Origin: a virus
Strand: one strand, 5' to 3'
IMG/VR virus record: IMGVR_UViG_3300030085_004825
Location: 1-64,000 of that record
DNA: 64,000 nucleotides
In this document: in pieces, positions 2,173 to 64,000 of the stretch
Layout: every line of letters begins with the position of its first letter
Numbering within the stretch: position 1 is the stretch's first letter
The notes under the pieces: generated by a model
What the model was told of the DNA's origin: nothing
What the model saw: only the letters and a program-made list of their open reading frames with translations
Database searches by the model: none
Made by a program: the position numbers and the translations under genes

Positions 2173-2490
2173 ATGTCAGTAAAATTTACATTCCATAATC
2201 CTTCAGCATCAGCTTATTTTATTATGGAGACAACAAAATCTTTTGATGAGGGATATACTTCGGCTACACCTAAGTATGCATCGGGTTCATTTTCCTCATT
2301 TACTGGGTCTGATATTACTACCCAACAAACATTTTTGTTTAAAGATGGGATTGTCCAAGATGATTTTAAATTAGCTCAAGTAGTACCTCCTGGTACTTCT
2401 TCATTTACATTTAATAATACTATTACTATACCTGTTGGGACTGTAATTTTTAGAGGGACAGGAGATTTTGACTTAATTATTGAAACTTAA
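2173..2490 (+). CDS. hypothetical, probable virion protein
   Basis: Beta-rich 105 aa protein with SAS/SGS/TGS/TSS motifs. Confidence 0.7.
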   Translation: MSVKFTFHNPSASAYFIMETTKSFDEGYTSATPKYASGSFSSFTGSDITTQQTFLFKDGIVQDDFKLAQVVPPGTSSFTFNNTITIPVGTVIFRGTGDFDLIIET

Positions 2491-2499
2491 TATATACGT

Positions 2500-3399
2500 A
2501 TGGCTGTTTATAACATAACACGGAAGCAATTAAAGGAGAAAAGTACAATCCGAGGAGGTAGGAAAGTTGAGGGGATTTTAAATACATTTGAAATACCTGT
2601 TGCTGGTGGGTTTACTAATACCTATTCTGCTTTATTTACTGGTGCTACAAATGAAAAAATCGATACTGGTGATAGTTTTAAACCTTCAAGATCATCTTCT
2701 TTTAGTATAAGTGCGTGGGTAAAATATACTGGGGGTGAATATGATTCTAATACTATGCTTGTTTCTAAATTAGCAGCTGGGAGAGGTGCTGTATTTAGAG
2801 GGTATAGGGTGCAATTTAATAGTGAGATAGGCGTTGCATTTTCACTACAAGCTGTTGGGAATAATTTTATCACCCAGCAAACTGCTAAACATAGTGGATC
2901 AAATGCTCTTGTACCAACAAAAAACCAATGGAATCATATAGTAGCAACTTATAATGGAAATTTTAGTGGATCAGGAATGAATATTTATATTAATGGAGTT
3001 AGTTGTGTATCACAATCTGCAGGTGGTGATATTGTAAATAATTTTCAGAGAGGATCAACACCTAATGTATTAGATCTTTCTCAAGGAGAAATCCAAGATA
3101 CTTCAACTATTAGTATTGGATCACGAAGTGGTGGTGCAGGCTCAGTTTGGATTGGTAATATTGATGAATTTGTATTTTTTAATGGAGAGTTAGCCCAAAG
3201 TGATGTAACAGCTTTATATAATAGTGGATTACCTAATTTAGCAACTGATATAGATTATAGTAAACAATTTATAACCCCAGCACATTATTATAGAATGGGT
3301 GATAATGATGGAGGTACTGGTACTACAGTTACAGATCAAGTAGGTAGTGCAAATGGTACGCTTTTCTTTATGAACTTTGAAGAAGATGTACCAGATTAA
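2500..3399 (+). CDS. LamG/ConA-like lectin domain virion protein
   Basis: FSISAWVK, WNHIVATYNG, IYING, GNIDEF..FNGEL...V..LYN motifs typical of Laminin_G_3. Confidence 0.85.
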   Translation: MAVYNITRKQLKEKSTIRGGRKVEGILNTFEIPVAGGFTNTYSALFTGATNEKIDTGDSFKPSRSSSFSISAWVKYTGGEYDSNTMLVSKLAAGRGAVFRGYRVQFNSEIGVAFSLQAVGNNFITQQTAKHSGSNALVPTKNQWNHIVATYNGNFSGSGMNIYINGVSCVSQSAGGDIVNNFQRGSTPNVLDLSQGEIQDTSTISIGSRSGGAGSVWIGNIDEFVFFNGELAQSDVTALYNSGLPNLATDIDYSKQFITPAHYYRMGDNDGGTGTTVTDQVGSANGTLFFMNFEEDVPD

Positions 3400-3401
3400 T
3401 T

Positions 3402-3968
3402 ATGAAACAATATAATGTAAATTTTCAAGATTCTCAAATTACATTTAATAAAAATAATGATCCTAATTTAATTGAACATGTAATGATGGATTGGGAGGAT
3501 GATCTTATGAAGGGTCATGCTAAGGTAGTATGTTATAATAAAGGAGATATTCTAGAATTTGGTTTTGGTATGGGTATATCTGCTACACATATCCAATCTT
3601 ATAAACCAAAATCTCACACTATAATAGAAATCCATCCCCAAATTATTGAAAAAGCCAAATTGTGGGCATTAGATAAACACAATGTTAAAATAATTGAGGG
3701 GGATTGGTTTGAATGTTTAGATCAACTAGATAAGTATGATGGCATATTTTTTGATACTTATAGTGATAATAATTTTACAGCATTTGGTCAAATAGCAAAA
3801 ACATTAACTAAACCAGGAGCTCATATTACGTGGTGGAACTCTATATCTAAACCCGATAATGTATATGGGTTTAAAGATGTTACATATATAAAATATGATG
3901 TAGATCCTCCTAAAAATAGTTATTTTAATGATAAGGCATATTATTTGCCTATAAAAATATTTCCCTAA
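3402..3968 (+). CDS. class I SAM-dependent methyltransferase, RMT2/GAMT-like
   Basis: VMMDWE, ILEFGFGMGI (motif I), HTIIEIHP, GDW, YDGIFFDTY. Confidence 0.85.
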   Translation: MKQYNVNFQDSQITFNKNNDPNLIEHVMMDWEDDLMKGHAKVVCYNKGDILEFGFGMGISATHIQSYKPKSHTIIEIHPQIIEKAKLWALDKHNVKIIEGDWFECLDQLDKYDGIFFDTYSDNNFTAFGQIAKTLTKPGAHITWWNSISKPDNVYGFKDVTYIKYDVDPPKNSYFNDKAYYLPIKIFP

Positions 3969-3981
3969 TATTTATAAGAAA

Positions 3982-4721: not shown

Positions 4722-4779
4722 AAAAGTAGGTTTTTTAAAAAAATTTTCGTATAGTTAAAAAAATTAAAAAAAATACATT

Positions 4780-5004: not shown

Positions 5005-5020
5005 TTTAAAAATATTTATT

Positions 5021-5272: not shown

Positions 5273-5278
5273 TATAAA

Positions 5279-13538: not shown

Positions 13539-14738
13539 ATGGCTATTTATAAAATATTCCCAACCCAAGATACTACCCTATATTCCTCTCACCCTTCTAT
13601 GAATACAGGAATAGATGCTATTTTAGAAGCATCTAATAAACTAGGAATAGATGGTTTACCTGATGTAGCCCGATATTTAGTACAATTTGATAATAGTGAA
13701 ATTAATGATATTATAACTAACAAAATTAGTGGAAGCACATACAGCGTTTACTTAACAAATTTTATTTCTGAAATTCAAGGAATAACTTCTAATACTTTTT
13801 TAGAAATACTCCCTTTAGCCCAATCTTGGGATAATGGTACAGGACAAACTTTAGATAATCCTATTACAGAAAATGGATGTTCTTGGGGGTATACTGATTT
13901 TAGTGGATCTACTTCTTGGTCTCCTTCTGGTGATTATGATGGTACTGAAGGGGTAATTTCTTATACTAGTTCATTTAATCCTTTATATAGTACACAAGGA
14001 GGAGGAAATTGGTTTTTTAATGGATCTAATAATTTACTTTATGTTTTAGCAGGGTATGTTTTAGATAACTACATAGATAACATAATAACATCTAACCCAA
14101 ATGTTATTAGTCAATCTTTTAATGTAAGAGATACAAAAGATTTAGAAGCTAAAGTAGATAATATAGTAAATAATTGGTATAGTGGTTCAATTCCAAATTA
14201 TGGTTTTATTGTAAAACTTGCAGATTCTTTTGAATTTAACCCTAGTCAATATGTACAACCACAATTTAAGTATTATAGTGTTGATACTAATACTATTTAC
14301 CCACCTCAATTAGAATTTAGATGGAGAGATTACTCTTTATATTCTCCTTCTACTTCTTCTATTGTAACAACTGAACAACTTAAACTCTCTTTATCTGAAA
14401 ATCCTGGAATTTTTACCCCAGAAAGTATAAATAGATTTTATATAAATGTAAGTCCTTTATATCCAACTAGAATATATAAAACAAGTTCATTGTTTACTGA
14501 TTTAAATTATTTACCAACATCTTCTTATTACGCGGTAAAAGATTTGGATACTAATGAATTTATCATTAACTTTGATGACCAATATACCCAAATTAGTTCT
14601 GATGAAAGAGGAAACTATTTTGATGTTTATATGAGTGGTTTAGAACCTGAAAGATATTATAAAATTTTAATAAAAACTGTGTTAAATAATTCAACTAAAA
14701 TTTTTGATGATAATTACTATTTTAAAGTTATAAATTAA
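13539..14738 (+). CDS. virion structural protein
   Basis: Position in baseplate module; late motif at 13516-13524; SGS/TSS motifs. Confidence 0.7.
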   Translation: MAIYKIFPTQDTTLYSSHPSMNTGIDAILEASNKLGIDGLPDVARYLVQFDNSEINDIITNKISGSTYSVYLTNFISEIQGITSNTFLEILPLAQSWDNGTGQTLDNPITENGCSWGYTDFSGSTSWSPSGDYDGTEGVISYTSSFNPLYSTQGGGNWFFNGSNNLLYVLAGYVLDNYIDNIITSNPNVISQSFNVRDTKDLEAKVDNIVNNWYSGSIPNYGFIVKLADSFEFNPSQYVQPQFKYYSVDTNTIYPPQLEFRWRDYSLYSPSTSSIVTTEQLKLSLSENPGIFTPESINRFYINVSPLYPTRIYKTSSLFTDLNYLPTSSYYAVKDLDTNEFIINFDDQYTQISSDERGNYFDVYMSGLEPERYYKILIKTVLNNSTKIFDDNYYFKVIN

Positions 14739-15099: not shown

Positions 15100-18000
15100 A
15101 TGGCTATAGAAATTTCTACTCTTCCTTCTACTCCTTATATATATCAAAACTTTGGCTCTGATACAAACAATATACCTTTTACCCAACCTAATAATCAACC
15201 ATTTTCAGGATCTAATAATATAGAATTTTATATTTTTGATCTTAACAATAATATACTATCTGAAAATTATAATTTTTCTGATTATTCCATTTTAAATGAA
15301 GGACAATTACCCTTAACTAATGTAATTTCTTCAATTTATGTAGATTTAGAAAAACAAATTGAAGATAGAGAATTACTTGATGGAGAGTATATAACATATT
15401 TTAATTTTTTTACTCCTAAAATAGGATCTTTTAATTCAAATTTATCTATTAAAGAAATTTCTGGGGATAGAAAAGAATTAGAATTTATATCCCCATTAGG
15501 AAATAATGAAGAAGTCACTAATTTTATAGGAGAAATAAATTCTTTTGATAATAGTAGTTTTCCTTATTTTTATTTAAATTTTGGAGAAAATAAACAAATT
15601 ATTGGTGTAAATTTAATTTCTAATGAAAATGGAAATTTTATAAAATTATATCAACCTCTTCCTGAAGAGTTTGACATTAATTCTAATTTTTGGGTTGTTA
15701 CCCCAATAACAGACCCTATAGCTTATAGTGTTAAAATAGAAAGTGAACCTTTTATTATTGATGAAACAGTAAAAATAAAAGGCCCTAATTTTAACTTAAA
15801 TATAAGAGATCAAGTTAATAATTCAACAAACAATTTATCATATCAAGATTTAATTCAAACTACTTTAACTAGTTCATACGATCAAGTTAACAATTTACTT
15901 CAAGCAAAAGAATTAAATGTAAATATAGATTATACTAATTTTTCCAATTTTACCCATTTTAGCTCAGCTAAAACTAGATTAGAAAATTTTTCTTACAAAG
16001 TTAACCTTATTGAAGAATATTCTTCTTCTCTTAACATATTAAGCAATACTACTGATACCGATACTTCAAGTAGTAAAGCAATATATGAAAGTAAAATAAA
16101 TAACATCATTAAAAATTTTGATGGATATGATCGTTTTTTATACTATGGTAGTAGTTCTTTTTCTTGGCCTAAAACAACACTTACTAAACCTTATCAACTA
16201 GCTAGTAGTGATAGTAATGAGGTTAAAAATTGGTTAGGAAATTTAAATGTTAATTCCCCTTTTTATGGAGGAATAATACTTTCTGCTTCTTTATTTGATG
16301 AAAAAAATGTTAATAGTTTATATTATTCTATCCCTGAATATTTAAGAAGTGATCCTAGTAATTCTCAATATGAATTATTTATTGATATGATTGCTCAACA
16401 TTTTGATAATATTTGGATTTATTATAGAGATGTTTCCCAAAAATATAATGCTGATAATCGTTTAAATCAAGGTATATCTAAAGATATAGTAGCTGATGCT
16501 ATTAAAGATTTTGGTATTAAACTATATCAAAATAATTTTTCTAATGAAGATTTATACACAGCATTTTTAGGGTTAACACCTAATGGAAATTTGTTTCCTT
16601 TCCCAAACATAACAGGATCATTACCCACCCCTACAGGATTTGAATATGTCAATAATTTAATATCTGCTTCTAATGATAGTATACCATTAGATGATGTAAA
16701 TAAGTCGTTATATAAACGAATATATCATAACATACCACATTTACTTAAAACTAAAGGTACTTTACCTGGCCTGCGTGCTCTTATAACTTCTTATGGTATT
16801 CCTGATACTATACTAAGAATAAATGAGTTTGGGGGTAAAGATAAAATTAATGTAAATGATTGGGATCATTGGCAAAGAGAATTTAATTATGCTTTTTCAA
16901 CAACAGGGAGCAACTTTATTTCTTCTTCATGGGATTGCCATGACCATTTCCCACCAGCGTTTGGAGGAGGAGCTAATGGTATTAATAACCAAATAATGTT
17001 TAGGTTTAAAACTAATGGTTTACCTACATCTAATATTCCCCGATCTCAAAGTTTATGGCATGTAAGTGGAAGTGGGTTTGGAGAAACTGCTATAACTTTA
17101 AGATATGAAGGTACAGCTTATGATAGTGCTTCATATAGTGGATCAATTAAAGATCCTTTTTGTGAGTATGCTTATTTAGATTTTTACCCTGACTTAGTAC
17201 ATTCATCATCAATTTCAGCTAGTATATATCTACCGTTTTTTGATGGTGATTGGTGGTCTGTAGCAGCAAGTAGAGATGATAGTACTTCTAAAAATTTTAC
17301 ACTTAGAGCTGCTAATAAATTATATAAAGGAGGTGATAATAATACAAAAATTGGTTTTATATCCTCTTCAATAATTAATCACTCAAACCCAATTGATGGT
17401 TGGAGACGTAAAAACTCAATAAGCTACTTCCCAGCCTCTTCTAGTATTTTAACTAATTACTTCCCTTTTTCAGGTTCATACCAAGAAATTAGATATTACG
17501 CTCCACCTATAACTGAAAGTGTATTTAGGGATTATACGATGAATCCTCATTCAATTGAAGGGAATACTACAAACTCATCTCCTAGTGATTTAACTTTTAG
17601 AGCTTCTTTAGGAGGAGAATTACATACAAGTTCTCTTTCTATCCATCCTAAAATAACAGGTTCATGGATAACAACTCAATCTTTTAGTGGAAGTGGAGAA
17701 GGATTTAGTAACTTTAATTTTAATGTTACCCCAACATTTTTACCTAATACTGAATTTATATTTTTTGATCAACCTATAGCAGGTATAAAAAATACAATTG
17801 GGGATAAAATTAGAATTGAAAATGATACACTCCCTGAGGGTAACACTTTATCTTCTTTTACTTCTTTATCTCAAACAACAAATATATCTCAAAGCTATAC
17901 TCCTAATATAAACTATTTAGAAGTAGCATTTTCACCACAAAATGAAATAAATGAAGACATAATAAATCAAATTGGATTCTTTGATATTGGAGAATACATT

Positions 18001-21000
18001 GGTGATCCAAGACAAAGATCTTCATCTGCTACTTCATATCCTGATTTAGATAATTTAAGAGATGATTATTTTGAAAAATATACTAAAAATTATAATTTAA
18101 AAGATTTTATACGTTTAATAAAATTTTTTGATAATTCATTATTTAAAATGATTAAAGATTTTGTACCTGCTCGTACAAGTCTTGCTTCTGGTGTAGTTAT
18201 AAAACAACATTTACTTGAAAGAAATAAATACCCACAACCACAAGTATCTTTTGAAAACCAAATCCATACAGGATCAATTGATATGGTTGAAATTTCTGGA
18301 GGTGCCGCTGGAGTATTTAACACATTTAATGGGCTAAATACTTCCCCTTATGGAATATCAGGAACAGGCCCAAATAATAAATACTTTTTAACCCAAAGTT
18401 GGGATGAAAATATATTAACTATTTCAGGATCTGCAGTAAAAACTTATTCTAATCAAGATGAATTTTATGATGGAATATTTAGTGGTTCTAATTTAACAGT
18501 TACAACCCAAAGTTTACAATCCCCATATCCTATAAACAATAAAGCTTTTAGCTATAACCAAGTACATTATTATGGTAGTCAAAGTGCCCAAATAACAGCT
18601 TTTAATGAAGGTTTAATTTTTGAAGATTTATTTTTAAATAATGTTACTTCTCCTCAAGATGGAGAAATATTATTTTTTAATGAAACTCCTACTCTAGCTC
18701 TCTTTAGAAAAACTAAATATTTAAAAATAGCTAAAGTTGATTGTAATGGAGTAGATAATACTTTAGTTTTAGGAAATGTAAATAAAGTTTTTGTTTTTTT
18801 ACCATTTTACAATACCTATATTCCTTATTCTTTAGAAATCCAAAATGAACAACAAAACTATTATCTATACCAACTTACAGAACCATCATTTTTTGTACCT
18901 TATGCAGATAACCAACAAGTTTTTCCTAACCAAACATTAAACTATTCTATTAGCGCTAGTACTACTCATTCTTTTGGGCTTAGCCCAGGAGGACAACTTC
19001 TCCCAGCTACAGAATATGATACAGTAATAGGTAATACTATTAATTATTTTGATGCTTTTGGTGGAGATTATACTTTTGAAAATACCCCAAATACTCCTCT
19101 ATATATTTCAGCTTCATTTTTATTTAGTGGAACTGGAGCATTAACTGCTTCAATATCAAGATTAATAGTTGAAAATGGGTTATCTAGTTTTCAACCAATT
19201 ACCTCTTCAGCAATATCGTCTCCTGGGAGTATTCAAATGAGTACTACATATTATGCTCTTAATGGAGATAGTTTGTATCTTACAGCTAAAGGAGCATCTT
19301 CTGCTACTTTTCGTACTGGATCTTTATTTATAACCCAAAGTAGACCTATAAGTACTTCAAGTTGTTACCCAATAATTGTTGAACCTTATATTACAGATGC
19401 AAATTTTTATAATAGTGATTTCAATTCATTAATTAATAATGTTGATTCTTATAAACTAAGTACTATTTTTCAAGATGTAGATTACACAACTAACATTTTA
19501 ACCCCCTCTAATTTTGATTTAATAATATCAGGTAGTGCTCTTAAAGCTCCTGTACAAGACTCTAACTATTCTTCTAAAGCATATACAAATATAAGATATA
19601 ATGGCTCTAAAACCACTTCTAGATTTTTAAATACTTGGTCTTCCAGAGATATAGGTACTTATGGAAAACTTCCCGCTGTAGAAAGTGATAAAGTTTATGT
19701 AGCTTATGGAGACATGGAAGGTGGGTGGCCACCTGAAAGAATGAATGCTTCTTCTTTTGGTATTAGATATTTAATTGATGAAGATGGAGATGTAGTTATA
19801 CCTAATGTTTCTGAAAATTCTTTACAAACAGTAAGAGGAACTTTTCAAACAGGAGAAAGATTTAGAATTAGTTCTAAAACAGAAGGATTTGGAGACCCTG
19901 AATGGGAATATAGAAAAATTATTAGGAGTGGAAATACTATACAACCTATTTTATATACCCAAATAGGAAAACAACCAGGTGCTTTATGGACTTCTTCTAT
20001 CCAATTAGTAGATATACAAGCTATTTCTGGTAGTGCAACTGCTAATTATCAAAATAATGGTAGTATTGGTACAATAAATACTCAATTCCAAAGAGATAGA
20101 TTAATACTCCAAAGCAGCCCATTTAATGACTCTCTCATTGGTATCAATGGAACAGCTACAGGTATCCCTACTACTTTTGGTTATTATGAAATTACATCTG
20201 GGATTCTTAGTGAAAATATTACATTAAATTTTAACATTAACCAATTAAATCTTAAATTCCACAAACCAAATGCTAATGAATATGTGTTTGCTACTACATT
20301 CCAACTTGGGGTAATTTTAAAAAGAAACGACGATACTATAGATGTGTACCAAGAAGAAATTAATACCATAATTATCTTCCCAGATAATGTTACCACAGGT
20401 CAAGTAAATAATATTTCTTTTCAAGTCCCTGCTTCTATTTTATCTGTAAATGATAGAATATCTTTTGAGATCGTTGCAGATATGCTCCCAGAAATCGTAC
20501 CTAATAACATTGCCCCATTACTTTCAATAGAAGGTGGAAACTATTCTATTACCCAAACCCCATTACCTACTTTACCTATCCTAGCAGGAAATAATGCTAT
20601 ATGGGGTTATTATGATAAAACAAATTACCCATATGTAATAACTTCTTCTGATGCTGTATCTGAATCATTAGGTGCACTTTATGGGGATTCTAATGCTAAA
20701 CAAATAGATATTCCTGAATCAGGATTTAACCCTATAACCTACCCTTGGTCAATAGAATATGGGGATGAATTTAGATTTGAAGGAAATGAAGACTTTTCAT
20801 ATACTGTTGGTCCTATTTTTGGACCTAATGAAACTGTATTTACTTACCCATACCAAGAAATAACAGCATCAAGAGTTTCACCAACAGGTTCAATTGAAGT
20901 CCATTTTAATAGAAATCTACCTATAAGTGCTAGCATAGATGTTTTTAATCTTGATCATTTTCTTATTAGAAGATACACAGATGATGCTTCAAGAATGATA

Positions 21001-21853: not shown

Positions 21854-22867
21854 ATGGCATTTAAATCTCTTGACCCACAAGATTTTGTAGTAAGTAGTGA
21901 TTCTATTACTTCTACTTTATGGTCAAACAATCTTCCTACATTAACACAATTTTTTACCTCTTCTACTCAAGCAGCAGCTTCTTCTGGTGATTATTATTTA
22001 AAAATCTATAATACCTCATCTGCAGATCAAGAATCACAATTTGAAGTAGTTTATGCTGATGCTTTAGGTAAAGGAAGTGAATTATATAATAGTATTGTGC
22101 CTAATAATTCACCTACAAAAACTATGTATGGGCAATATAGATCTCTTATTTTAGAAGATGAAAACGCTAGTTTTACCTTTGGAACAGATAATAATAGTCT
22201 TACCTCAGATAATTTTTGGGTAATTTCAGTAGATAGAACTAGATATAAACAATCTCTTTTTCCTGGATCTTTAAATTTAACTTTATCAGGGTCAGGAGGT
22301 CAAGAAATTTTACAATTAACAGATGATTCTAAAGATATTTTAGTTAATAGATTTTTAGGAAGTTCTAGATATTATCAATTAATATCTGGGTCAAATGGAA
22401 CAGCAGGTAGCCTAGCAGAAAGTGGGTATGTAGCAGGATCAGGCTCTTATGGTTTAGTATTCCCAGATTTAGGAACAATAATTTTAAACCCTCATGCTTT
22501 ATCCCAATCTATTAATCTTAACCCTTCTCGTTCAATTAATTCTCCTGGTTTAAATAATAAAAGTTTATTTGAGTCTATTAATTTAGGTTCTTCTTTTACT
22601 CTTAACTCCCAAGAAACAGTTACTTCAGATTATGTATTTGTTAGAGCCCGAAATAGTGAATTTAACTATTCAGAAAACCCTTCATTTATATCTGGATCAA
22701 CAGGTGAAGTTATATATGAAGATTTTATAAATCAACCTCAAGTATATGTCACAACAATTGGAATGTATAATAATTCAAATGAGTTATTAGCTGTAGCTAA
22801 ACTATCAAGACCTTTATTAAAAGATTTTACTAAAGAATCTTTAGTTAGAGTTAAATTAGATTTTTAA
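21854..22867 (+). CDS. baseplate-associated structural protein (paralog 1)
   Basis: C-terminal EFNYSENP...YVTTIGMYNN..ELLAVAKLSRP. Confidence 0.7.
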   Translation: MAFKSLDPQDFVVSSDSITSTLWSNNLPTLTQFFTSSTQAAASSGDYYLKIYNTSSADQESQFEVVYADALGKGSELYNSIVPNNSPTKTMYGQYRSLILEDENASFTFGTDNNSLTSDNFWVISVDRTRYKQSLFPGSLNLTLSGSGGQEILQLTDDSKDILVNRFLGSSRYYQLISGSNGTAGSLAESGYVAGSGSYGLVFPDLGTIILNPHALSQSINLNPSRSINSPGLNNKSLFESINLGSSFTLNSQETVTSDYVFVRARNSEFNYSENPSFISGSTGEVIYEDFINQPQVYVTTIGMYNNSNELLAVAKLSRPLLKDFTKESLVRVKLDF

Positions 22868-51807: not shown

Positions 51808-53487
51808 ATGTCAACAATTAATTCATTACTCGAAAACTCTGCAAATAGTTATAAAAACTTGCAGAGCGATGCTGCTAAAATGGCATCAAAATGGGGTAAA
51901 ACCGGATTGTTAGAAGGTCTCGGAGGCGAGATTGAAAAAAACAATATGGCGATGATCCTCGAAAACCAAGCTAAACAGCTTGTAACTGAAGCTTCTGCTA
52001 CTAACCAAGGTGGCGGTACCTTTTCAGTAGGACAAGGTGAACAATGGGCTGGTGTAGCACTTCCATTGGTAAGAAAAGTATTTGGATCTTTATCTACTAA
52101 AGAATTCATGTCTGTTCAACCAATGAACCTACCTTCAGGTCTTGTATTTTTCCTTGATTTCCAATATGGACAACAAAAAGAACTAGACTTCGGTCCTGCA
52201 GGAGATGTTTATACTGCTGGTTCTTCAATGTATGGTAATACTGACCCAGGTGCTAATGCTGACCCATCAGGTGGTCTTTATGGTGCTGGTAGATTTGCTT
52301 ATTCAATTAACCAAAGATCAGCTTCATTAGACGGTACTATTTCTTCAGCTACTTGGGCACAAGTTGATTATGATTCTGCTAAATCTGCTTCTATAGCAGC
52401 AGGAGTTACATATTCAGCGGTTGCTATTGATATGTCAACGTTAACTGGATCTGGTGCTACAAACCCAGATTTTAAAGGAGCTAGAGCATTTACTGCTACT
52501 TCAGCTTCTATTGCTACAACTTCAAATATCTTACCACAATATACTTCTGTTAATGCAGCTACTGGTACTGTAACATTTATTTATGAACAATCTTCAGCTT
52601 CATTTGCTGATTTAGATGAGCCATTCTATGTTACTTATAACCTACAACCAACTGATAACAACAGAGGTGATTTTGAAGATACTACTGGAGGTGGATTCCC
52701 TAATGCTGAATCAACAACTGCTGATCAATTAGCAATCCCTCAAATTGATATCAAAATGAAATCTGAAGCTATTGTTGCTAAAACACGTAAGTTAAAAGCA
52801 CAATGGACACCAGAATTTGCTCAAGATTTGAACGCTTACCAATCTTTGGATGCTGAAGCGGAATTAACTTCAATCATGAGTGAATATATTGCATTAGAAA
52901 TTGATTTGGAAAACTTGGATATGTTGATTCAAGATGCATCTGCTGCTGATGAGTATTGGTATGCACAAAACAATAGAGTTCTAAATGCTAACAGTGATGG
53001 ATATGATAATCCTGGATTCTTTAATACACAAGGACAATGGTTCCAAACTTTAGGAACTAAAATGCAGAAAGTATCTAACAAGATTCACCAAAAGACCCTT
53101 AGAGGTGGTGCTAACTGGTTAGTATGTTCTCCATCAGTTGCTACAGTCCTAGAATCAATTCCTGGATTTGCTTCAACATCTGATGGTGATGCTGCAAAAG
53201 CGTCTTATGCATTTGGTATCCAAAAAGCAGGTAACTTGAATAACCGTTATACGGTTTACAAGAACCCATACATGACTGAAAATGTAATCCTAATGGGTTA
53301 TAGAGGTTCTCAATTCTTGGAAACAGGAGCAGTATTTGCACCATATGTTCCATTAATTATGACTCCTCTAGTATACGATCCAGATACATTTACACCACGT
53401 AAAGGTCTCTTGACTCGTTACGCGAAGAAGATGATTCGACCTGAATTCTTCGGACGTATCTTTGTAAATGATTTACATCAACTATAA
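51808..53487 (+). CDS. gp23: major capsid protein
   Basis: LENQ, VQPMNLPSGLVF, AKTRKLKAQWTPEFAQDL.A, APYVPL, PRKGLLTRY. Confidence 0.96.
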   Translation: MSTINSLLENSANSYKNLQSDAAKMASKWGKTGLLEGLGGEIEKNNMAMILENQAKQLVTEASATNQGGGTFSVGQGEQWAGVALPLVRKVFGSLSTKEFMSVQPMNLPSGLVFFLDFQYGQQKELDFGPAGDVYTAGSSMYGNTDPGANADPSGGLYGAGRFAYSINQRSASLDGTISSATWAQVDYDSAKSASIAAGVTYSAVAIDMSTLTGSGATNPDFKGARAFTATSASIATTSNILPQYTSVNAATGTVTFIYEQSSASFADLDEPFYVTYNLQPTDNNRGDFEDTTGGGFPNAESTTADQLAIPQIDIKMKSEAIVAKTRKLKAQWTPEFAQDLNAYQSLDAEAELTSIMSEYIALEIDLENLDMLIQDASAADEYWYAQNNRVLNANSDGYDNPGFFNTQGQWFQTLGTKMQKVSNKIHQKTLRGGANWLVCSPSVATVLESIPGFASTSDGDAAKASYAFGIQKAGNLNNRYTVYKNPYMTENVILMGYRGSQFLETGAVFAPYVPLIMTPLVYDPDTFTPRKGLLTRYAKKMIRPEFFGRIFVNDLHQL

Positions 53488-54263: not shown

Positions 54264-54665
54264 ATGGCTGCAGGAAAATATTCTTTTACTATTGAACAAG
54301 GAACTACTACAAATTTTGAAATCCAATATAAAGATTCAAATAACACCCCAGTTGATTTAACTAATTATTCAGGTAGACTGCAAATTAGATCTACTTATGC
54401 TCAAGATAGTGGTGAACTATTTTTAACATTATCATCTTCTTTAAATTCTGATGGAACTGGATTAAATTTTAGTGGTTCAAACGGATCTACTTCCCCCACA
54501 TCAGGATCAATAGGTATTTATATTGCAGCTTGCACTAGTTCAGCTTTAATTTTTAATGAAGCAAAGTACGACCTTGAACTTTATTCAGGAAGTGGTGAAT
54601 GTCCCTTTACTATAAGATTATTAGAAGGGAACGTAAAATTAAGTAAAGAAGTAACTCGAATATGA
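54264..54665 (+). CDS. virion structural protein
   Basis: IEQGTT..PVDLTNYSGRLQIR..YDLEL..RLLEG.V adaptor-like beta sandwich. Confidence 0.75.
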   Translation: MAAGKYSFTIEQGTTTNFEIQYKDSNNTPVDLTNYSGRLQIRSTYAQDSGELFLTLSSSLNSDGTGLNFSGSNGSTSPTSGSIGIYIAACTSSALIFNEAKYDLELYSGSGECPFTIRLLEGNVKLSKEVTRI

Positions 54666-56329
54666 GTAAAATAAGCATTTCAAGTCAAAATGTCCAAGTA
54701 ACCCCTACAGTTACAGAAAATAAGGTTGAAATAAAAACATCTAACCATAATGATGTTACTATAACTCAACCAAATACTGAAATTGTTGAAATAGTTACAG
54801 GACCACAAGGGGCTAGAGGTCTCCAAGGCCCTTCAGGTTCTCAAGGCCCTTCAGGTTCTCAAGGATTGATTGGTCCCCAAGGTCCTTCAGGTTCTCAAGG
54901 CATCCCAGGCCCAATAGCTAATACAGGTTCATTTGTTACAAATGATCAAACATCTTCAATGTCAGTATTAACTGCTTCATATGCTTTAAATGTTGAAACT
55001 TTTGATCCTTTCCCATATACTGGAAGTGCTATAATTACAGGTAGTTTAGATGTAATAGGACCTGTTACATTAGCTCATGATGGAGGAACTAATTTAACTC
55101 TTGAAACAACTAACACTTATGGAGAAATATCATTCACAGGTAGTGGTGTAGCAAACATAATTAGTAAAGAATCTGATTTACGCCTAAAAGGAGGCTCAGG
55201 AAATCAATTATGGTTAGGTGCTAATGATGTAAATGGGTTATTTAGAATTATTGAAGATGGTAATGCAAATATAAAGGGTGGATTAAGAAATGTTAAAATA
55301 AGAGCAGATGAAGGATTTACTTTAGGTTTAGGAGCAAATAATGTAAATGATATTCTTCTTATTAGTAGCAGTACCACCTCTATCTCAGGATCACAAATTG
55401 TATATGGAAGTACACCTTCTGAACTTGTAAGAATTACTCAAACAGGAACTGGCCCTGCTCTTTTAGTAGAAGACTCAGCAAACCCTGATTCAACCCCAAC
55501 TATCATAACTAAAGATGGGGATGTATTTATAGGATCTGGGTCTGCCCCTGCAACATTAGGAGGGTTAACCCCTAAGCTATATATTAAAAATGGAGATAGT
55601 GGATATGATTCACATTTAGCTATTGATACTGCAATGTTATTTGAAGGGCAAGGAGCTACATATTTTGCAACATTAACCCAAGACTCAGTTGTTGGTGGTT
55701 TTTATATGGGCAGCAATTCAGACCCATTTGGAGCTGTAGTAAGATGGGGATACGATGCTGGTAATTTAGAACTTATAGCTGCATCTGTAGGACATGGTAT
55801 TACATTTCAAGTTGGAAATAAACCAACTGCTTCAATGACATTACAACCTATTAGTAGTGGTACCTCTGACCCAACAGCTGTTTTAAATGTAACAGGAAGT
55901 ATAATAACAAATAATATAACAGCATCAAATAATATTAGTGCTAGTAATATTGTAACAGGTTTAACGGGCTCATTTGGATTATTAACGGGTTTATCTCCTA
56001 TAATAGTTAGAGATCAAATAACATTTGAACAACCTATTACAGCATCATCTAATATAAGTGCAAGTGGAACTATAGAATCTGCAGGTAACATAACAAATGG
56101 AACATCAAGAACCTTATTTACCACAGCAAGTATAGTTTATAGTGGAAGCAATGTTACACAAGTAACACAAAGTTTTGGTGCAACCCAACAAATAACAAAC
56201 ATAATATACTCAGGATCATTTGAAGATGGAAATCCTTTATCAGTATCCGTGACTGGATCAGATGGGGTTAATAAATTATACACTCTAACATATAGCGCAA
56301 GTTTAGTTACACAAATAATACAAAGTTAA
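54662..56329 (+). CDS. collagen-repeat fibre protein
   Basis: Gly-X-Y run near the N-terminus; ITGS/ISAS-rich fibre body. Confidence 0.8.
   Translation: MSKISISSQNVQVTPTVTENKVEIKTSNHNDVTITQPNTEIVEIVTGPQGARGLQGPSGSQGPSGSQGLIGPQGPSGSQGIPGPIANTGSFVTNDQTSSMSVLTASYALNVETFDPFPYTGSAIITGSLDVIGPVTLAHDGGTNLTLETTNTYGEISFTGSGVANIISKESDLRLKGGSGNQLWLGANDVNGLFRIIEDGNANIKGGLRNVKIRADEGFTLGLGANNVNDILLISSSTTSISGSQIVYGSTPSELVRITQTGTGPALLVEDSANPDSTPTIITKDGDVFIGSGSAPATLGGLTPKLYIKNGDSGYDSHLAIDTAMLFEGQGATYFATLTQDSVVGGFYMGSNSDPFGAVVRWGYDAGNLELIAASVGHGITFQVGNKPTASMTLQPISSGTSDPTAVLNVTGSIITNNITASNNISASNIVTGLTGSFGLLTGLSPIIVRDQITFEQPITASSNISASGTIESAGNITNGTSRTLFTTASIVYSGSNVTQVTQSFGATQQITNIIYSGSFEDGNPLSVSVTGSDGVNKLYTLTYSASLVTQIIQS
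54800..54916 (+). repeat. collagen Gly-X-Y repeat
   Basis: GPQGARGLQGPSGSQGPSGSQGLIGPQGPSGSQGIPGPI. Confidence 0.9.
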
Positions 56330-56640: not shown

Positions 56641-58068
56641 ATGGCATGGACATTATCAGGTGATTATTATGTAGACGCAGTAGCCGGTGATGACGGTAAT
56701 GCAGGAACATCTACAGCACCATTTAAAACAATACCTGCAGCAATAGCAGCTGCTGAAGCAGAAGCCTCTGGATATTATGACATCATAGTTGGAGCTGGAA
56801 CATACACAGACAGACTAGTATCTGGAAATAGTTCTAGATACATGTGCCTTAAAGCAGATGGTGAAGTAATATTTGACGCTAGTAGCACCGGCGACAGTGC
56901 ATTTTACAACGGTAAGTTTTGGGTAGTAGAAGGATTTAAAATAATTGATGTTGAACAAGCACTACAAAAATCAACTAGCGATGCAAATCGAGTAAATTTT
57001 CACAAATGCTATATAAAAAATTGTGCTGATTGGTATATAGATTTAACAATGAATGAACTATCATTTTATAACGACACTGGTTGTATATTTGAAAACGTTG
57101 GAAGCACAAACCTAAGCACATCACACTATGCTCGCTATTTTAATTTTTATAATTGTATGTTTATTAATAGTTGGATGCCAGGTTATAGAGATACTGGTGG
57201 TCAGTTTAGTAGTAATACTTATCAACCATCAGCCAATGAATGTGTATTTGTAAACACTGAAAATAATGGAATCACTAATTATTATTCTGGACCAGCTTCT
57301 GTAGCTTATGGAAATGTTAGAAATAGCGTATTTAATGAATTTGCTGTATACAGGGATAAAAACGCCATAAAACGATCAGGATCTGCATTAGCCGAATTCT
57401 TTGACACAGGCAACAACGGCAATTACTGGGAAGCTGGAGCTAAAGTTGTCAGTATGTCATTTAACACAGATATATCTGGATCTAATATGATGTCAGACGC
57501 AATATACACTCTATCTGGTGTTGCATCTAATAAAGATTATTTCCAAAATTCCCGTATGGGTAATACTAGATTTGCTGGTACTAACAACATGGCAACAGCT
57601 TATGGATATCAAGACATTGCATCCAATCCATTTCACACTGCCGGTGGAGCAACTTGGACGAATATTACTGCATCAGATGTAGGAGGCCTACAAATTTCAG
57701 CATCAACTGTACCAACTGGTACAATAGAGTCTGCAGTTATAGATCAAGGGAGTGTTAAAGTTATACGACAAATTAAAACTTCATTTACTTCTACAGAACT
57801 AGGAGCAACAGGTATATCAGTACACACTGCAAGTGTAGACAATAAATTCCCAACCAGACAAACATTTGAAATGCGTTATGGAAATACTTCTGATTTATCT
57901 AGTACTCCATATCAAATATTTGATACTAGTTTACCAACATATATAGATTCAAATGGTAGTGGAAGTGGTGATATAACATTTAACTCTGGTAGTAACTTTA
58001 ATTTTCCAAGTGCAAGATATTTACAACTTAAATTTACATTAAGAACCAACATGACTGGATCAACCTAA
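56641..58068 (+). CDS. pectin-lyase-like beta-helix protein (tailspike/receptor-binding candidate)
   Basis: YYVDAVAGDDGNAGT..APFKTI..AI...V.AGTY cap; repeated xCxF rungs. Confidence 0.75.
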   Translation: MAWTLSGDYYVDAVAGDDGNAGTSTAPFKTIPAAIAAAEAEASGYYDIIVGAGTYTDRLVSGNSSRYMCLKADGEVIFDASSTGDSAFYNGKFWVVEGFKIIDVEQALQKSTSDANRVNFHKCYIKNCADWYIDLTMNELSFYNDTGCIFENVGSTNLSTSHYARYFNFYNCMFINSWMPGYRDTGGQFSSNTYQPSANECVFVNTENNGITNYYSGPASVAYGNVRNSVFNEFAVYRDKNAIKRSGSALAEFFDTGNNGNYWEAGAKVVSMSFNTDISGSNMMSDAIYTLSGVASNKDYFQNSRMGNTRFAGTNNMATAYGYQDIASNPFHTAGGATWTNITASDVGGLQISASTVPTGTIESAVIDQGSVKVIRQIKTSFTSTELGATGISVHTASVDNKFPTRQTFEMRYGNTSDLSSTPYQIFDTSLPTYIDSNGSGSGDITFNSGSNFNFPSARYLQLKFTLRTNMTGST

Positions 58069-61151: not shown

Positions 61152-61163
61152 TTTTTATAAATT

Positions 61164-61646
61164 ATGGCTGAACCTAGTAAACCTACTTTATATAATCATA
61201 GATTTAGAGCTAGCAAATTAGATAGTTTTGCTTTAAAAGATACTCCTATACCAACTGCATCTAAAGCCATATTTGCTGAAAGTGGAGATGGCAATTTTAG
61301 TGGTAATTTTACAGGTAATGGGTCAGGTTTAACTAACTTACAAAGACCTATTTCAAATTCTATTTCAACCCATTTTACAGCAAGCAATTTAAATGCAGGG
61401 TTTTATTTTAGAGTAGGTGGAAATGTGACTTGTTCTATTCAATCTTCTTCATTAGTAACTTGTGATGTAGGAAATGAATTTAAACTTTTTCAAACCTCAT
61501 CAGCAGGGCAAACTTTAATTTTAACAGGTAGTGGTGTAACTTTAAATTCTAAAAATGGTAATATTAATCTTAATGGTCAATTTTCTTTAGCAACTTTAAA
61601 AAAAGTTGGAAACGATGAGTGGGATTTAACAGGAGATATAAAATAG
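61164..61646 (+). CDS. small fibre-like structural protein
   Basis: GNFTGNGSGLTNL; C-terminal ATLKKV..DEWDLTGD. Confidence 0.7.
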   Translation: MAEPSKPTLYNHRFRASKLDSFALKDTPIPTASKAIFAESGDGNFSGNFTGNGSGLTNLQRPISNSISTHFTASNLNAGFYFRVGGNVTCSIQSSSLVTCDVGNEFKLFQTSSAGQTLILTGSGVTLNSKNGNINLNGQFSLATLKKVGNDEWDLTGDIK

Positions 61647-61703
61647 AAAATTGGAATATCAAAAAATTTTACGTATTATAAAATAAACAAATAAAAATAA
61701 ATT

Positions 61704-61976
61704 ATGGCAATAGTTACAAATCAAAAAGAAAAAGTTTTTTTAACAGAGGAAGAACTTAAAACATTAAGAGATATTCAATCCCAAACTAAGGGAATAATTT
61801 TAGAATTAGGAGAAATCCAAGTAATGAAACTTCAATTAGAAACTAGAGAAAAAAATGCTAAATCTATTTTTGAACAAACTCTTAAAAAAGAAAATGATTT
61901 TACCCAACTCCTTTTAAAAACCTATGGTACTAGTGAATTAAACCCAGAAACTGGGGAAATTATTAAAAGTGTTTAA
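61704..61976 (+). CDS. hypothetical coiled-coil protein
   Basis: 90 aa ending YG...LNPETGEI. Confidence 0.75.
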   Translation: MAIVTNQKEKVFLTEEELKTLRDIQSQTKGIILELGEIQVMKLQLETREKNAKSIFEQTLKKENDFTQLLLKTYGTSELNPETGEIIKSV

Positions 61977-62012
61977 TTTAATTATATTTATAACAAAACT
62001 TAATAAAATAAT

Positions 62013-64000
62013 ATGTCTGAAATTATTATTTCTCCTGGAGTAGACGTAACAGAAAATGATCAAACTTTTAATTTTCAACAACCTGCTCAAGCTGATGTTG
62101 CTATTATAGGCCCTACAGTAAGGGGAAAAATTAATATTCCTACTATAGTTACTTCATATGAAGATTATATACAAAAATATGGTGATGATTTTTTAAGTGG
62201 GAGTAGTAATTATAACTATTTTACTTCTTTAGCAACGTATAACTTTTTTCAGAATTTAGGAGATGCACCTGGATCAGTCTTAATAACTCGTGTTGTAAGT
62301 GGTAGTACAGTAACAGATTGGACTCCTGCTACATCTTCTAGAATAGAAACTTCTTTTACAGAAATACAAGCTTCAGCAAGTGTTCCTTTTACACCATTTT
62401 TTCCATCATCATCATTTTTTATTTCCCAAGGTGCTTCTTCTGATAATCTTACAGGAACTTTTTCAATAAATGGTATAACTTTAGTTATTACAGGTAGTGC
62501 TCATAATTCTTCTTATAGTGGAAACTTTACTAATACTTCTACTTTAATATATGTCCCTTCAGGTTCAAATGTTGCTAATACGGTAATCTCAGCTTCAGAA
62601 CATTTAGCTGCTAGTAGTTCTTTACCAGCTTATAGTTCTTCTTTAGGAAATATATCATCCTCAGCAGACACAAATAATTTATTATTAACATATATTGGAC
62701 AAAACTCTGCAGGTATAGGAAATAACCAAGTATTTACTTCAGGAAGTACTGCTAGTGGTAACATTACATATACTTTTTCAGGTGGTGTAAATACAGAAGC
62801 ATTTGTGCTAGAAACTATATCTGAGGGAGAAATAATGAATAGTGAGGGTCCTACAGGACCAGATGGTACTTTATTAAGTGGGTCTGAAAATAATTACAGA
62901 TACCAAATAACATCTCCAAATGTAGAAGATGGGACTTTTAATTTACTTATTAGAAAAGGTAATGATACTACAACTTTTCCTTCTGTATTACACACAATAG
63001 GTCCTATTTCATTAGATCCTAATTCTTCAAATTATATTGAAAAAGTAATAGGAAACCAAATTCATACTTTAACCCAAGATAGTACAACAAGTGAGTATTT
63101 CATTCAAACCACAGGCAATTACCCTAACAGATACCCTACTATTAGAGTTAAACAAGTAAATGCTACTACTGTAGATTATTTTAATAATGATGGAACTGTA
63201 AAATCTGAATATACAAGTTCAATGCCTCTTACTCAAAGTGGGGTATTTGGAGGAGCTTTAGGAAATAATATACCAACAAATGCTGCTGGTAACTATTATG
63301 AAAATATTACTGATTCAAACATTCAAGGTCTTTCTCCTAGTAACTATTCTGAATCTATTTCTTTATTATCTAATAAAGATGCTTATAGATATAACACTAT
63401 AATCACTCCTGGATTAATAGCTGATCCTAATTTTTACCCTAATAGTAATATTATTGTTTCTCAATTAATATCTATGGTAGAAAATAGAGGAGATTGTATG
63501 GCTATAATAGATATTTCTAAATACAATGAAAACACTGGCCAGATAATAGCTAATGCTCAAACTAGAAATACTTCATATGCTGCTACTTATTGGCCTTGGG
63601 TGCAAACACCTCTTCCTAATAATCTTTCTACTTTAGTATGGGCTCCTACATCTACTTTTATCCCTGGAGTATATGCCTTTAATGACTCAAATGGTTACCC
63701 TTGGCTTGCCCCTGCAGGCATAAATAGAGGAATTATTAGTAATGCTACTCAAACTGAAAAAGTATTAACTCAAGGTATTAGAGATACATTATATCAAAAT
63801 AGAATTAATCCTGTGACTACTTTTATAACTCCTCAAGGGAATTCTATTGTTGTATTTGGACAAAAAACTTTACAAAAACGTAATACTTCTTTAACACGTA
63901 TTAATGTAAGACGTTTGTTAATTAATTTAAAAAATTACATATCTCGGGTAGCAAATGAATTTGTTTTTGAACAAAATACCCCTGAAACTAGAGAAGATTT
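62013..64000 (+). CDS. gp18: tail sheath protein, partial (runs off the window; not in ORF track)
   Basis: Hand translation MSEIIISPGVDVTEND..IGPT.RG..; YWPWV, WLAPAGINRG, INPV, VFGQKTLQ, RINVRRLL..K; late motif at 61984-61992. Confidence 0.93.
   Translation, partial: MSEIIISPGVDVTENDQTFNFQQPAQADVAIIGPTVRGKINIPTIVTSYEDYIQKYGDDFLSGSSNYNYFTSLATYNFFQNLGDAPGSVLITRVVSGSTVTDWTPATSSRIETSFTEIQASASVPFTPFFPSSSFFISQGASSDNLTGTFSINGITLVITGSAHNSSYSGNFTNTSTLIYVPSGSNVANTVISASEHLAASSSLPAYSSSLGNISSSADTNNLLLTYIGQNSAGIGNNQVFTSGSTASGNITYTFSGGVNTEAFVLETISEGEIMNSEGPTGPDGTLLSGSENNYRYQITSPNVEDGTFNLLIRKGNDTTTFPSVLHTIGPISLDPNSSNYIEKVIGNQIHTLTQDSTTSEYFIQTTGNYPNRYPTIRVKQVNATTVDYFNNDGTVKSEYTSSMPLTQSGVFGGALGNNIPTNAAGNYYENITDSNIQGLSPSNYSESISLLSNKDAYRYNTIITPGLIADPNFYPNSNIIVSQLISMVENRGDCMAIIDISKYNENTGQIIANAQTRNTSYAATYWPWVQTPLPNNLSTLVWAPTSTFIPGVYAFNDSNGYPWLAPAGINRGIISNATQTEKVLTQGIRDTLYQNRINPVTTFITPQGNSIVVFGQKTLQKRNTSLTRINVRRLLINLKNYISRVANEFVFEQNTPETRED

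Follow-up and report, generated by a model that had tools for sequence, protein, structure and literature searches.

A lineage-specific serine motif on the outer virion proteins of immuto-related myophages as a candidate O-glycosylation sequon

The outer virion proteins of a marine phage carry a short recurrent motif, hydrophobic-[S/T]-[G/A]-S-hydrophobic, which is lineage-specific and which is predicted here, with a probability of about 0.5, to be the clade-wide acceptor site of a phage-encoded protein O-glycosylation, read by a module of glycosyltransferases. The DNA analysed (the window, 64,000 nucleotides of IMG/VR record IMGVR_UViG_3300030085_004825) is part of a 122-kb contig that is 75% complete. 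By its sequence the source phage is a T4-distant myophage and kin of Flavobacterium phage immuto, and its likely host phylum is Bacteroidota because two of the phage proteins bear T9SS sorting domains. IMG/VR contains several hundred stretches from relatives, one search giving 153 confirmed matches and a second at least 589.

Within the window, 63 open reading frames were each compared with 1000 whole-protein shuffles, using the seven tripeptides named by an earlier, sequence-only reading and written here as [ST][GASQ]S. That reading had described the external proteins as rich in these words, which is borne out by 161 occurrences against 64.7 expected; it had also proposed composition-preserving shuffles as a check, and the excess held even when residues were shuffled locally in 15-aa blocks (161 versus 74.1), with z above 11 under both nulls. 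SGS is the most over-represented of all tripeptides in the window (43 versus 9.4, z 11), followed by SAS, TAS and TGS. The claimed predominance of Ser over Thr at the third position is likewise found, with [ST][GASQ]T showing no excess in the window (62 versus 59.6) and SGT, TGT and TAT standing at shuffle expectation. The sequon had nevertheless been drawn too wide: Gly and Ala at position 2 stand, whereas Gln is without excess (SQS 6 versus 5.2, TQS 7 versus 4.6) and SSS and TSS are weakly enriched (z 1.6-3.3).

When the full contig is counted, [ST][GA]S occurs 164 times against 56.9 expected (z 13.7), and 89 times against 18.4 when led by a hydrophobic residue (z 16.8), whereas [ST][GA]T is not enriched (54 versus 53.3). 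Of 105 core sites, 62% have a hydrophobic residue at position -1, compared with a background of 32%. The position-3 Ser of these sites is encoded by TCA (40), AGT (31), TCT (28), AGC (5) and TCC (1), and since both Ser codon families are used the signal lies at the protein level. The sites are scattered single motifs and do not form tandem arrays. Neither the N-glycosylation sequon N-x-S/T (222 versus 214.5 in shuffles, z 0.6) nor the Bacteroidota O-glycosylation sequon D-(S/T)-(A/I/L/V/M/T) is enriched (66 versus 60.5, z 0.8), the latter in agreement with the initial remark that the host motif differs.

The motif-bearing genes of the window all lie on the + strand, and their counts are given as observed versus shuffle expectation for the wide form ([ST][GASQ]S) or the core form ([ST][GA]S). 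A 105-aa protein of unknown family and without a PHROG match (2173..2490) has 4 wide motifs versus 0.8 and 3 core motifs versus 0.4. In the baseplate region, a 399-aa protein whose gene adjoins that of the Baseplate_J-like protein (13539..14738) has 8 wide motifs versus 2.2, and its family (30 distinct sequences including orthologs) averages 5.2 core motifs versus 1.0, spread over 21 alignment columns. The 2008-aa baseplate or wedge-periphery protein (15100..21126), the N-terminal part of which is homologous to immuto gp109, contains 46 wide motifs versus 10.6 (z 11) and 24 core motifs versus 4.3 (z 10). Two adjoining paralogs follow: a 337-aa protein (21854..22867) with 7 wide motifs versus 3.6, in whose family of 72 distinct sequences five SGS sites are present in 92-100% (mean 6.0 motifs versus 1.5 expected), and a 306-aa protein (22873..23793) with 8 versus 2.2, in whose family of 65 distinct sequences there are 22 motif columns, 5 of them occupied in more than 90% and 14 in less than 20% of sequences.

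Further downstream, the major capsid protein of the gp23 family (51808..53487; Pfam Gp23, E 1.4e-74) has 5 core motifs versus 1.4. It is followed by a 133-aa Ig-like protein (54264..54665; 5 wide motifs versus 1.6) related to phage T5 p132, with a profile match to chain 7qg9_R (PDB name L-shaped tail fiber protein p132; E 0.0027); in its family of 25 sequences one SSS, three SGS and one TSS site are each present in at least 90%. The 555-aa tail fibre (54662..56329), which begins with a collagen-like repeat and has tail-fibre and collagen PHROG matches, contains 25 wide motifs versus 5.8 (z 8.6) and 22 core motifs versus 3.1, three of the sites falling inside GPSGSQG collagen triplets. A 475-aa protein whose N-terminus belongs to DUF1565 (beta-helix type; 56641..58068; Pfam E 3e-5) has 8 wide motifs versus 3.5 and 8 core motifs versus 2.2 (z 3.9), and a 160-aa virion protein (61164..61646), the C-terminus of which matches PHROGs of virion structural and minor tail proteins, has 5 wide motifs versus 1.3. 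The last is the tail sheath, first of two tandem paralogs (62013..64000, the gene running to 64211 beyond the window; PHROG 23, E 4.9e-41), with 16 wide motifs versus 5.2 in the 662 aa within the window and 9 core motifs versus 2.3. The approximate manual counts of the sequence-only reading agree with those found for the fibre (25), the 337-aa (7), 306-aa (8), 133-aa (5) and 105-aa (4) proteins and the sheath (16), while its estimate of about 30 for the 2008-aa protein fell short of the 46 found.

When 16 enriched outer proteins are taken together, a set chosen after the counts had been seen, they hold 141 sites against 29.7 expected, while the remaining 112 ORFs hold 23 against 25.8. The latter figure means that the motif is not avoided in non-virion proteins, which counts against reading it as a sequon. 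No wide motif occurs in the protease or in the portal, primase, exonuclease and scaffold, the last four of which the sequence-only reading had already described as poor in it or free of it. Core sites are absent from the portal, protease, tube, tape measure and hub and from the Baseplate_J-like protein. Within single proteins the placement is also uneven. All five core sites of the capsid protein lie at residues 171-263, in the variable insertion region only and between blocks conserved with T4 gp23, which itself has none; all nine of the sheath lie at residues 62-289, and the C-terminal part aligning with T4 gp18 residues 467-651 has no core site. Conservation of the position-3 Ser of the motif (0.75) exceeds that of other Ser (0.51; p 9e-5). 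At one site NGS, DGS and SGS alternate among family sequences, and such swapping, together with the positionally fixed sites, is as found in structural beta-turns and counts against a sequon.

Beyond this phage, the hydrophobic-led [ST][GA]S is enriched in immuto (96 versus 27.1), Rhodothermus phage RM378 (51 versus 12.9) and Microcystis phage Mel-JY01 (62 versus 21.9) and shows no excess in the controls T4 (7 versus 12.6) and cyanophage P-HM2 (6 versus 10.4). Hydrophobic residues flank the motif at positions -1 and +3 in each of the four motif-positive phages, the hosts of which belong to three phyla, but not in T4. In addition, ten proteins that occupy the fibre slot in relatives, and that have no BLAST similarity to the 555-aa fibre, together hold 122 motifs against 34.9 expected.

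The sequence-only reading had proposed a phage-defined sequon on external proteins, a proposal strengthened by the lineage specificity, the outer-protein enrichment and the conserved Ser, and weakened by the lack of a transferase on the contig. It had seen no glycosyltransferase in the window; in fact, none is found on the entire 122-kb contig, either among the Pfam families listed (127 of 128 ORFs) or by six-frame searches with PF00534 and PF00535. The contig ends within a nuclease gene. In relatives, this nuclease heads a row of genes for a GT-B enzyme of about 480-500 aa (GT1a), a second GT-B of about 420-440 aa (GT1b), a 154-aa protein and a GT-A of about 206 aa, after which come strain-variable sugar-nucleotide genes. 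In 53 of 54 loci of relatives GT1a comes directly after the nuclease, and all five large relatives, four of them at least 96% complete, have it. The missing enzymes are thus likely explained, because the contig is 75% complete and ends in the gene that precedes the module in 53 of 54 relatives, and we infer that the module is present in the unassembled quarter of the genome. Consistent with this, contigs of depth 19-25 from a sequencing run flagged as the possible source tile genes of a relative (those for the nuclease, GT1a, GT1b and the 154-aa protein) with an identity of about 86-88%, although these contigs cannot be assigned with certainty. In the phage collection, GT1a homologs occur in immuto, Mel-JY01, LR756508 and RM378, plus three weak matches, and the phages with clear homologs are those of the common capsid lineage. 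All four motif-positive phages form one clade, so the co-occurrence of motif and module counts as a single evolutionary event.

Among solved structures, both GT-B profiles match chlorovirus B736L best (E 1.9e-13 and 8.6e-5), a virus-encoded enzyme that, as a review suggests, may add D-rhamnose to the virus glycan (PMC4691112). The GT-A best matches SunS (E 2.9e-4) and GmaR (E 5e-3), while GT1a is marginally similar to Gtf1 (4pqg; E 1.1e-3 and 2.5e-3) and the second GT-B shows a weak resemblance (26% over 139 aa, E 7e-8) to transferases encoded in the structural module of Arthrobacter phages. This weak likeness to protein-modifying enzymes, and the fact that the acceptor of B736L is not established, count against the sequon reading. 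DNA is an unlikely target of the module, because immuto DNA is reported to have three canonical nucleosides, including dA and dC, with fdPreQ1 replacing dG, and the word stem 'glycosyl' is absent from the passages that describe it (bioRxiv 10.1101/2023.04.13.536721). The module could instead act on host surface glycans.

If the motif is an O-glycosylation sequon, one transferase would read it late in infection, in the cytoplasm, on exposed surfaces of proteins already folded, and would place the first sugar on the Ser of the motif, the acceptor being guessed as position 3 because this is its most conserved residue. Other transferases would extend the glycan with sugars from the variable cassette, and the resulting coat would cover the virion exterior (capsid insertion domain, outer sheath domains, baseplate periphery, collar and fibres), serving stability, reduced sticking or masking. 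The cassettes differ between strains: the close relative L016 has a full nonulosonic-acid pathway (PseB/PseC-like, NeuB, CMP-transferase) beside the module, immuto has aminotransferase, epimerase and acetyltransferase-type genes, read as bacillosamine-like, and Mel-JY01 has methyltransferase and further transferase genes. We entertain, as a picture somewhat short of an even bet, a deep-branching group of myophages from the sea, fresh water and hot springs with a common O-sequon, a three-transferase module, a strain-swapped sugar supply and new fibre genes that gain the sequon. Each strain would draw on its own supply (nonulosonic acid, bacillosamine-like sugar, or the products of the methyltransferase and transferase cassette), and its virions would then be covered all over by a glycan coat unlike that of other strains, and freshly acquired fibre genes would be 'domesticated' by sequon gain.

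The sites could also be a structural idiom, a turn or strand cap inherited or converged upon in the clade's beta-rich outer domains, with the module serving some other purpose, of which alteration of host surface polysaccharide is an example. The invariance of several sites (the SGS sites of the 337-aa family and those of the 133-aa family), the NGS, DGS and SGS interchange at one site, the fit of Gly or Ala between small polar residues with hydrophobic flanks to a tight turn, the frequent NG, TG or G directly after the motif and the kinship of all positive phages speak for this possibility. However, the physics of turns is universal, yet the outer proteins of T4 and P-HM2, including Ser/Thr/Gly-rich fibres, stand at or below expectation; NGS and DGS are not in excess on the contig (15 versus 15.4 and 12 versus 12.3); Thr is not accepted at position 3; and the motif recurs on unrelated folds (capsid insertion, sheath, Ig-like collar protein, collagen-like repeat) and in fibre proteins without detectable mutual similarity. 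On balance a purely structural origin appears unlikely, although it has to be taken seriously.

The same arguments for a trans-acting, lineage-specific reader leave its chemistry unnamed, so that the motif might be recognized by another factor, through a different Ser modification (phosphate, acyl or other) or as a docking site. The docking partner envisaged is either a fibre-assembly factor or a chaperone of the phage, for instance its GroEL/GroES; the clade does encode its own GroES and GroEL. Against such a factor, neither protein kinases nor acyltransferases for virion proteins appear among the Pfam families listed, and no conserved lineage-specific enzyme other than the glycosyltransferases was found to accompany the motif, which makes this explanation rather improbable. 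Far less credible still is an artefactual enrichment caused by composition, low-complexity patches or a DNA word: the enriched proteins are indeed richer in Ser, Thr and Gly than others, but whole-protein and local shuffles both preserve the signal, mirror-image and Thr-ending words are less enriched, the Ser codons are diverse, and the G+C content of the positive phages spans about 29-42%.

To our knowledge, documented virion glycosylation is limited to few phages and no phage O-sequon has been published; a literature search found none for this clade. If the sequon is true, glycosylated phage proteins would be predictable from sequence alone, the motif would mark a very abundant aquatic phage group with strain-variable glycan coats that bear on adsorption, particle stickiness, stability and recognition, and a compact acceptor tag and enzyme set would be at hand for cytoplasmic glyco-engineering. 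The question is open to direct test in immuto, RM378 and Mel-JY01, all of which are in culture.

Among known systems, the virions of some actinobacteriophages are glycosylated by phage-encoded glycosyltransferases, as known from mycobacteriophage work. Both there and in the relatives of the present phage, tailed phages have their own transferases, the proposed targets being proteins of capsid and tail, synthesized in the cytoplasm; in contrast, the present phages are T4-distant myophages of Bacteroidota, Cyanobacteria and Rhodothermus, with a three-enzyme module, swappable sugar cassettes and a putative sequon that is short, dispersed and statistically defined, on many proteins rather than a tail extension. 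In one genome note, two putative transferases are said to suggest capsid glycosylation (PMC11256854). Bacteroidota general O-glycosylation shares the likely host phylum and operates outside the cytoplasm, where virions do not assemble; its sequon is unenriched, and the phage motif is also found where hosts are not Bacteroidota. Chlorovirus glycans are N-linked to Asn, whereas the candidate acceptor here is Ser and the hosts are bacteria. Otherwise the proposed phage system would resemble that of the chloroviruses in being virus-encoded, cytoplasmic, independent of the host secretory pathway and based on unusual sugars (PMC4691112). In Aeromonas flagellin, as one paper describes, pseudaminic acid is carried on S-x-S-spaced Ser pairs with hydrophobic flanks (PMC9290775), a cytoplasmic O-glycosylation of exposed Ser/Thr on a self-assembling structure that resembles the system proposed here, as does the nonulosonic-acid pathway next to the module in L016. 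However, the middle residue is Leu/Ile in the flagellin and Gly/Ala in the phages, NeuB is present in one of the five large relatives, and Maf (PF01973) in none of them, nor among the 10 ORFs that follow the nuclease of L016, which speaks against a Maf-type transferase. The serine-rich-repeat adhesin type (GtfA/GtfB) is disfavoured as well, as there are no tandem Ser-x arrays and the similarity to Gtf1 is marginal. Finally, and against the sequon reading, LR756508 carries a GT1a homolog of 32% identity but shows weak motif enrichment in the two 50-kb stretches examined (21 versus 16.4 and 21 versus 13.2).

The excess of short Ser/Thr motifs that the sequence-only reading had proposed as a candidate glycosylation sequon on external virion proteins, [S/T]-[G/A/S/Q]-S, is confirmed and, at the same time, narrowed. 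The per-protein counts given for seven tripeptides were reproduced, except for the 2008-aa protein (46, against about 30 in that reading), and SGS came first when all tripeptides were ranked against per-protein shuffles (43 observed versus 9.4 expected, z 11.0), with SAS, TAS and TGS next among those that are frequent. The reported preference for Ser over Thr at the third position was equally evident (161 versus 64.7 for [ST][GASQ]S; 62 versus 59.6 for [ST][GASQ]T), with SGT, TGT and TAT at expectation. Among the residues proposed for the second position, Gly and Ala stood, Gln proved not to be enriched, and SSS and TSS are enriched only weakly. The excess persists in shuffles of 15-residue blocks (161 versus 74.1, z 11.2), so that Ser/Thr/Gly-rich patches do not explain it and local low complexity is ruled out. 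Furthermore, the position-3 Ser is written with TCA, AGT and TCT codons in similar numbers, which rules out a DNA-level word and indicates selection on the amino acid. Hydrophobic residues precede the motif at 62% of 105 sites, compared with a background of 32%, and hydrophobic or aromatic ones are also enriched directly after it. As a working definition, the motif reads hydrophobic-[S/T]-[G/A]-S-hydrophobic.

Across the whole record (the contig), 141 of the 164 core sites, [ST][GA]S, lie within 16 proteins for which 29.7 would be expected; this set was picked post hoc with the counts known, and its z is descriptive only. The remaining 112 ORFs contain 23 core sites versus 25.8 expected, and as motif avoidance in non-virion proteins is thus not seen, no argument from a restriction-site-like depletion can be made. 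Besides the capsid protein and the tandem pair of sheath paralogs, the 16 comprise proteins of the baseplate periphery, an Ig protein resembling T5 p132, the collagen-like fibre and, outside the window at 100.7-109.5 kb of the contig, four large proteins. No core motif is found in the portal, tail tube, tape measure, protease, hub or Baseplate_J-like protein. All five capsid-protein sites are confined to residues 171-263, a variable stretch that separates the blocks conserved between it and T4 gp23; the capsid sites of relatives fall in the same stretch. In both sheath paralogs, as well as in the sheaths of the cultured relatives immuto and Mel-JY01, every site is N-terminal to the region aligning to residues 467-651 of T4 gp18. 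This conserved region would form the inner layer of the sheath, with the variable domains turned to the outside. Residues ~46-90 of the 555-aa fibre (window 54662-56329) form a G-X-Y repeat of the collagen type, where the triplets GPS-GSQ make up three of the motif copies; at these sites the motif would lie inside a presumed triple helix rather than in beta structure.

The contig, a single virus record of 122,391 bases of which the window is the first 64 kb, is linear according to IMG/VR and 75% complete according to CheckV. It has no terminal overlap or repeat, and complete relatives measure 160-166 kb with direct terminal repeats; about 35-40 kb, including the slot of the transferase module described below, are therefore probably missing. 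The earlier statement that no glycosyltransferase is visible in the window is borne out, for 127 of the contig's 128 ORFs (all but one of 1231 aa), by a Pfam scan run on six groups of ORFs, the negative resting in two of these groups on the first 25 of 36 and the first 25 of 33 matching families, and six-frame searches of the contig for PF00534 and PF00535 also found none. At 122198-122391 (L005:7198-7391), outside the window, the contig breaks off within the gene of a PD-(D/E)XK nuclease, its final 192 bases coding for the N-terminal 64 residues; this fragment shares 94-98% protein identity with many close IMG/VR relatives. In immuto, this nuclease is followed by one small ORF and about ten sugar genes, five of which are annotated as glycosyl- or mannosyltransferases, the others including two of aminotransferase type, an epimerase, a methyltransferase-domain gene and a ‘pilin glycosylation’ protein. 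The gene order in Mel-JY01 is the same, and in a third cultured relative, RM378, the gene of the first transferase precedes that of a second, which is only weakly similar.

Of 80 relative loci kept, 54 extend at least 1.5 kb beyond the nuclease, and in 53 of these the next gene encodes a GT-B transferase (GT1a), beyond which, where the sequence permits, a second GT-B (GT1b), a 154-aa protein and a GT-A follow. In the closest large relative (L016; 155.7 kb, 96% complete) the next genes encode a Glyphos_transf-like protein, a PseB-like dehydratase, a DegT aminotransferase, NeuB and a CMP-transferase, which jointly make up a nonulosonic-acid pathway. Since GT1a is present in all five large relatives and NeuB in one of them, the module is constant and the sugar supply varies; a Maf enzyme is absent from these five. 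In a possible source run, Logan contigs at a depth of 19-25 tile the nuclease/GT1a/GT1b/154-aa region of a relative at about 86-88% identity, and the Logan piece overlapping the contig's own tail has a similar depth (23.4), which fits the same genome running on into the module without being proof of it.

The distribution of the motif among phages was compared using one ORF caller and one shuffle scheme throughout. The core motif is in excess in immuto (181 versus 86.8; hydrophobic-preceded form 96 versus 27.1), Mel-JY01 (139 versus 65.0; 62 versus 21.9) and RM378 (81 versus 34.7; 51 versus 12.9), the genomes compared spanning about 29% to 42% G+C and hosts from three phyla. In the controls, the counts are 27 versus 40.7 (hydrophobic-preceded, 7 versus 12.6) for bases 70,001-168,903 of T4, which hold structural genes, and 39 versus 36.5 (6 versus 10.4) for bases 85,001-135,000 of cyanophage P-HM2, which include large Ser/Thr-rich fibre proteins. 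The enrichment is thus not a general property of phage outer proteins. The record LR756511 has no GT1a match and shows 10 versus 9.9 in the 50 kb surrounding its capsid gene, a single stretch out of 595 kb, and LR756508 shows a weak excess at most (21 versus 16.4 and 21 versus 13.2 in two 50-kb stretches). Among the independent lineages with a weak GT1a match (Tetrasphaera phage TJE1, S-CBS4, S-EIVl and Arthrobacter phages), TJE1 was the one compared and is not enriched (25 versus 19.4). The hydrophobic-preceded Thr-ending form is not significant in RM378 or Mel-JY01. The phage immuto is looser, with [ST][GA]T at 135 versus 90.0, SGT at 44 versus 24.6 and TGT at 40 versus 26.7, which, together with a sugar cassette unlike that of the contig's closest relative, may reflect a shift in site rules.

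Both GT-B profiles find their best solved-structure match in chlorovirus B736L (E 1.9e-13 and 8.6e-5), a virus-encoded retaining GT-B. The best matches of the GT-A are weak, namely SunS, a peptide S-glycosyltransferase (E 2.9e-4), and a chain named GmaR (E 5e-3), GmaR being a flagellin O-GlcNAc transferase. In a review, B736L is put forward as a possible transferase of D-rhamnose to the virus's oligosaccharide, with the acceptor unproven (PMC4691112). Homologs of GT1a in the phage collection belong to phages of this capsid lineage, apart from three weak matches. In the available portion of a preprint on immuto DNA, dA and dC are named among three canonical nucleosides, fdPreQ1 replaces dG, and the word ‘glycosyl’ does not occur (bioRxiv 10.1101/2023.04.13.536721), which makes a DNA role of the transferases unlikely for immuto. 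A precedent for the shape of such a site is Aeromonas caviae flagellin, where pseudaminic acid is carried mainly on S-x-S Ser pairs (S159/S161, S167/S169) with hydrophobic flanks, and where L160A and I168A, substitutions of the hydrophobic residue between the paired serines, severely lower motility and flagellin levels (PMC9290775). The phage motif shares this spacing and these flanks, but its middle residue is Gly or Ala. Literature searches on glycosylation in Flavobacterium phages, on nonulosonic acids in phages, on the transferases of RM378 and on Mel-JY01 turned up nothing about virion glycans.

At a probability of about 0.5, we favor a clade-wide O-glycosylation sequon that would be read by the conserved phage transferase module, lying in the unassembled quarter of the genome. 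The main rival, which we consider less likely, is that the motif is a structural turn peculiar to the clade and that the transferases serve another purpose. The slot after the gene of the motif-rich 133-aa protein holds very different fibre proteins across 22 IMG/VR relatives, for 10 of which BLAST finds no match to the fibre of this phage at E 1e-5, and all 10 are still enriched (summed, 122 versus 34.9). Such persistence of the motif along the phage lineage, in unrelated proteins, speaks for a lineage-specific reader and against inheritance with a fold.

Conservation, as seen in six IMG/VR ortholog families, cuts both ways. The position-3 motif Ser is more conserved than other Ser (0.75 versus 0.51, Mann-Whitney p 9e-5), as is position 1 (0.65 versus 0.51, p 0.03), and for position 2 no difference from Gly/Ala elsewhere is seen. 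Five SGS sites of the 337-aa family are retained in 92-100% of 72 sequences and all five sites of the 133-aa family in at least 90% of 25 sequences; in the 306-aa family, 14 of the 22 motif columns are occupied in less than 20% of sequences. One site interchanges NGS, DGS and SGS, which is the behavior of a structural turn and keeps the structural explanation alive. A search of solved structures with the 337-aa family profile returned no solved relative.

All 128 ORFs called on the contig are on the + strand, and the G+C content of the phage sequence is about 25-35%. The capsid protein is of the gp23 family and, in the phage collection, is nearest to that of the Flavobacterium phage immuto, which grows on Flavobacterium sp. 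LMO8 (59% identity); next come Mel-JY01, a Microcystis phage (50%), the uncultured LR756508 (48%) and RM378, a phage of Rhodothermus marinus (35%). The runs containing contig sequence are marine metagenomes. A Bacteroidota host is indicated by sorting domains for type IX secretion at the ends of two phage proteins: CHU_C (contig 67832-68041, outside the window; L184) ends a 402-aa ORF between tail tube and hub, and Por_Secre_tail (contig 92552-92743, also outside; L183) ends a 932-aa ORF. Their presence suggests that some phage proteins might be exported via the host's secretion system.

The two sheath paralogs (732 and 657 aa), both with Pfam sheath domains, lie in tandem at window 62013-64000, continuing to contig 64211, and at contig 64259-66232; immuto has one sheath gene at the corresponding place. 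Outside the window, 7-deazaguanine DNA-modification genes at contig ~96.5-100.3 kb encode homologs of immuto DpdA, QueC, QueD and QueE, the same region also containing a FolE2-type GTP cyclohydrolase, and GroES and GroEL are encoded at contig 115341-117270. The annotation of RM378 includes a UDP-galactopyranose mutase-like gene. A 451-aa protein (window 39488-40840) matches FAD/NAD Rossmann families in its first 45 residues only. A Laminin_G_3 domain, of the concanavalin-like lectin type (E 1.5e-15), makes the 299-aa protein at window 2500-3399 a possible carbohydrate-binding component of the virion.
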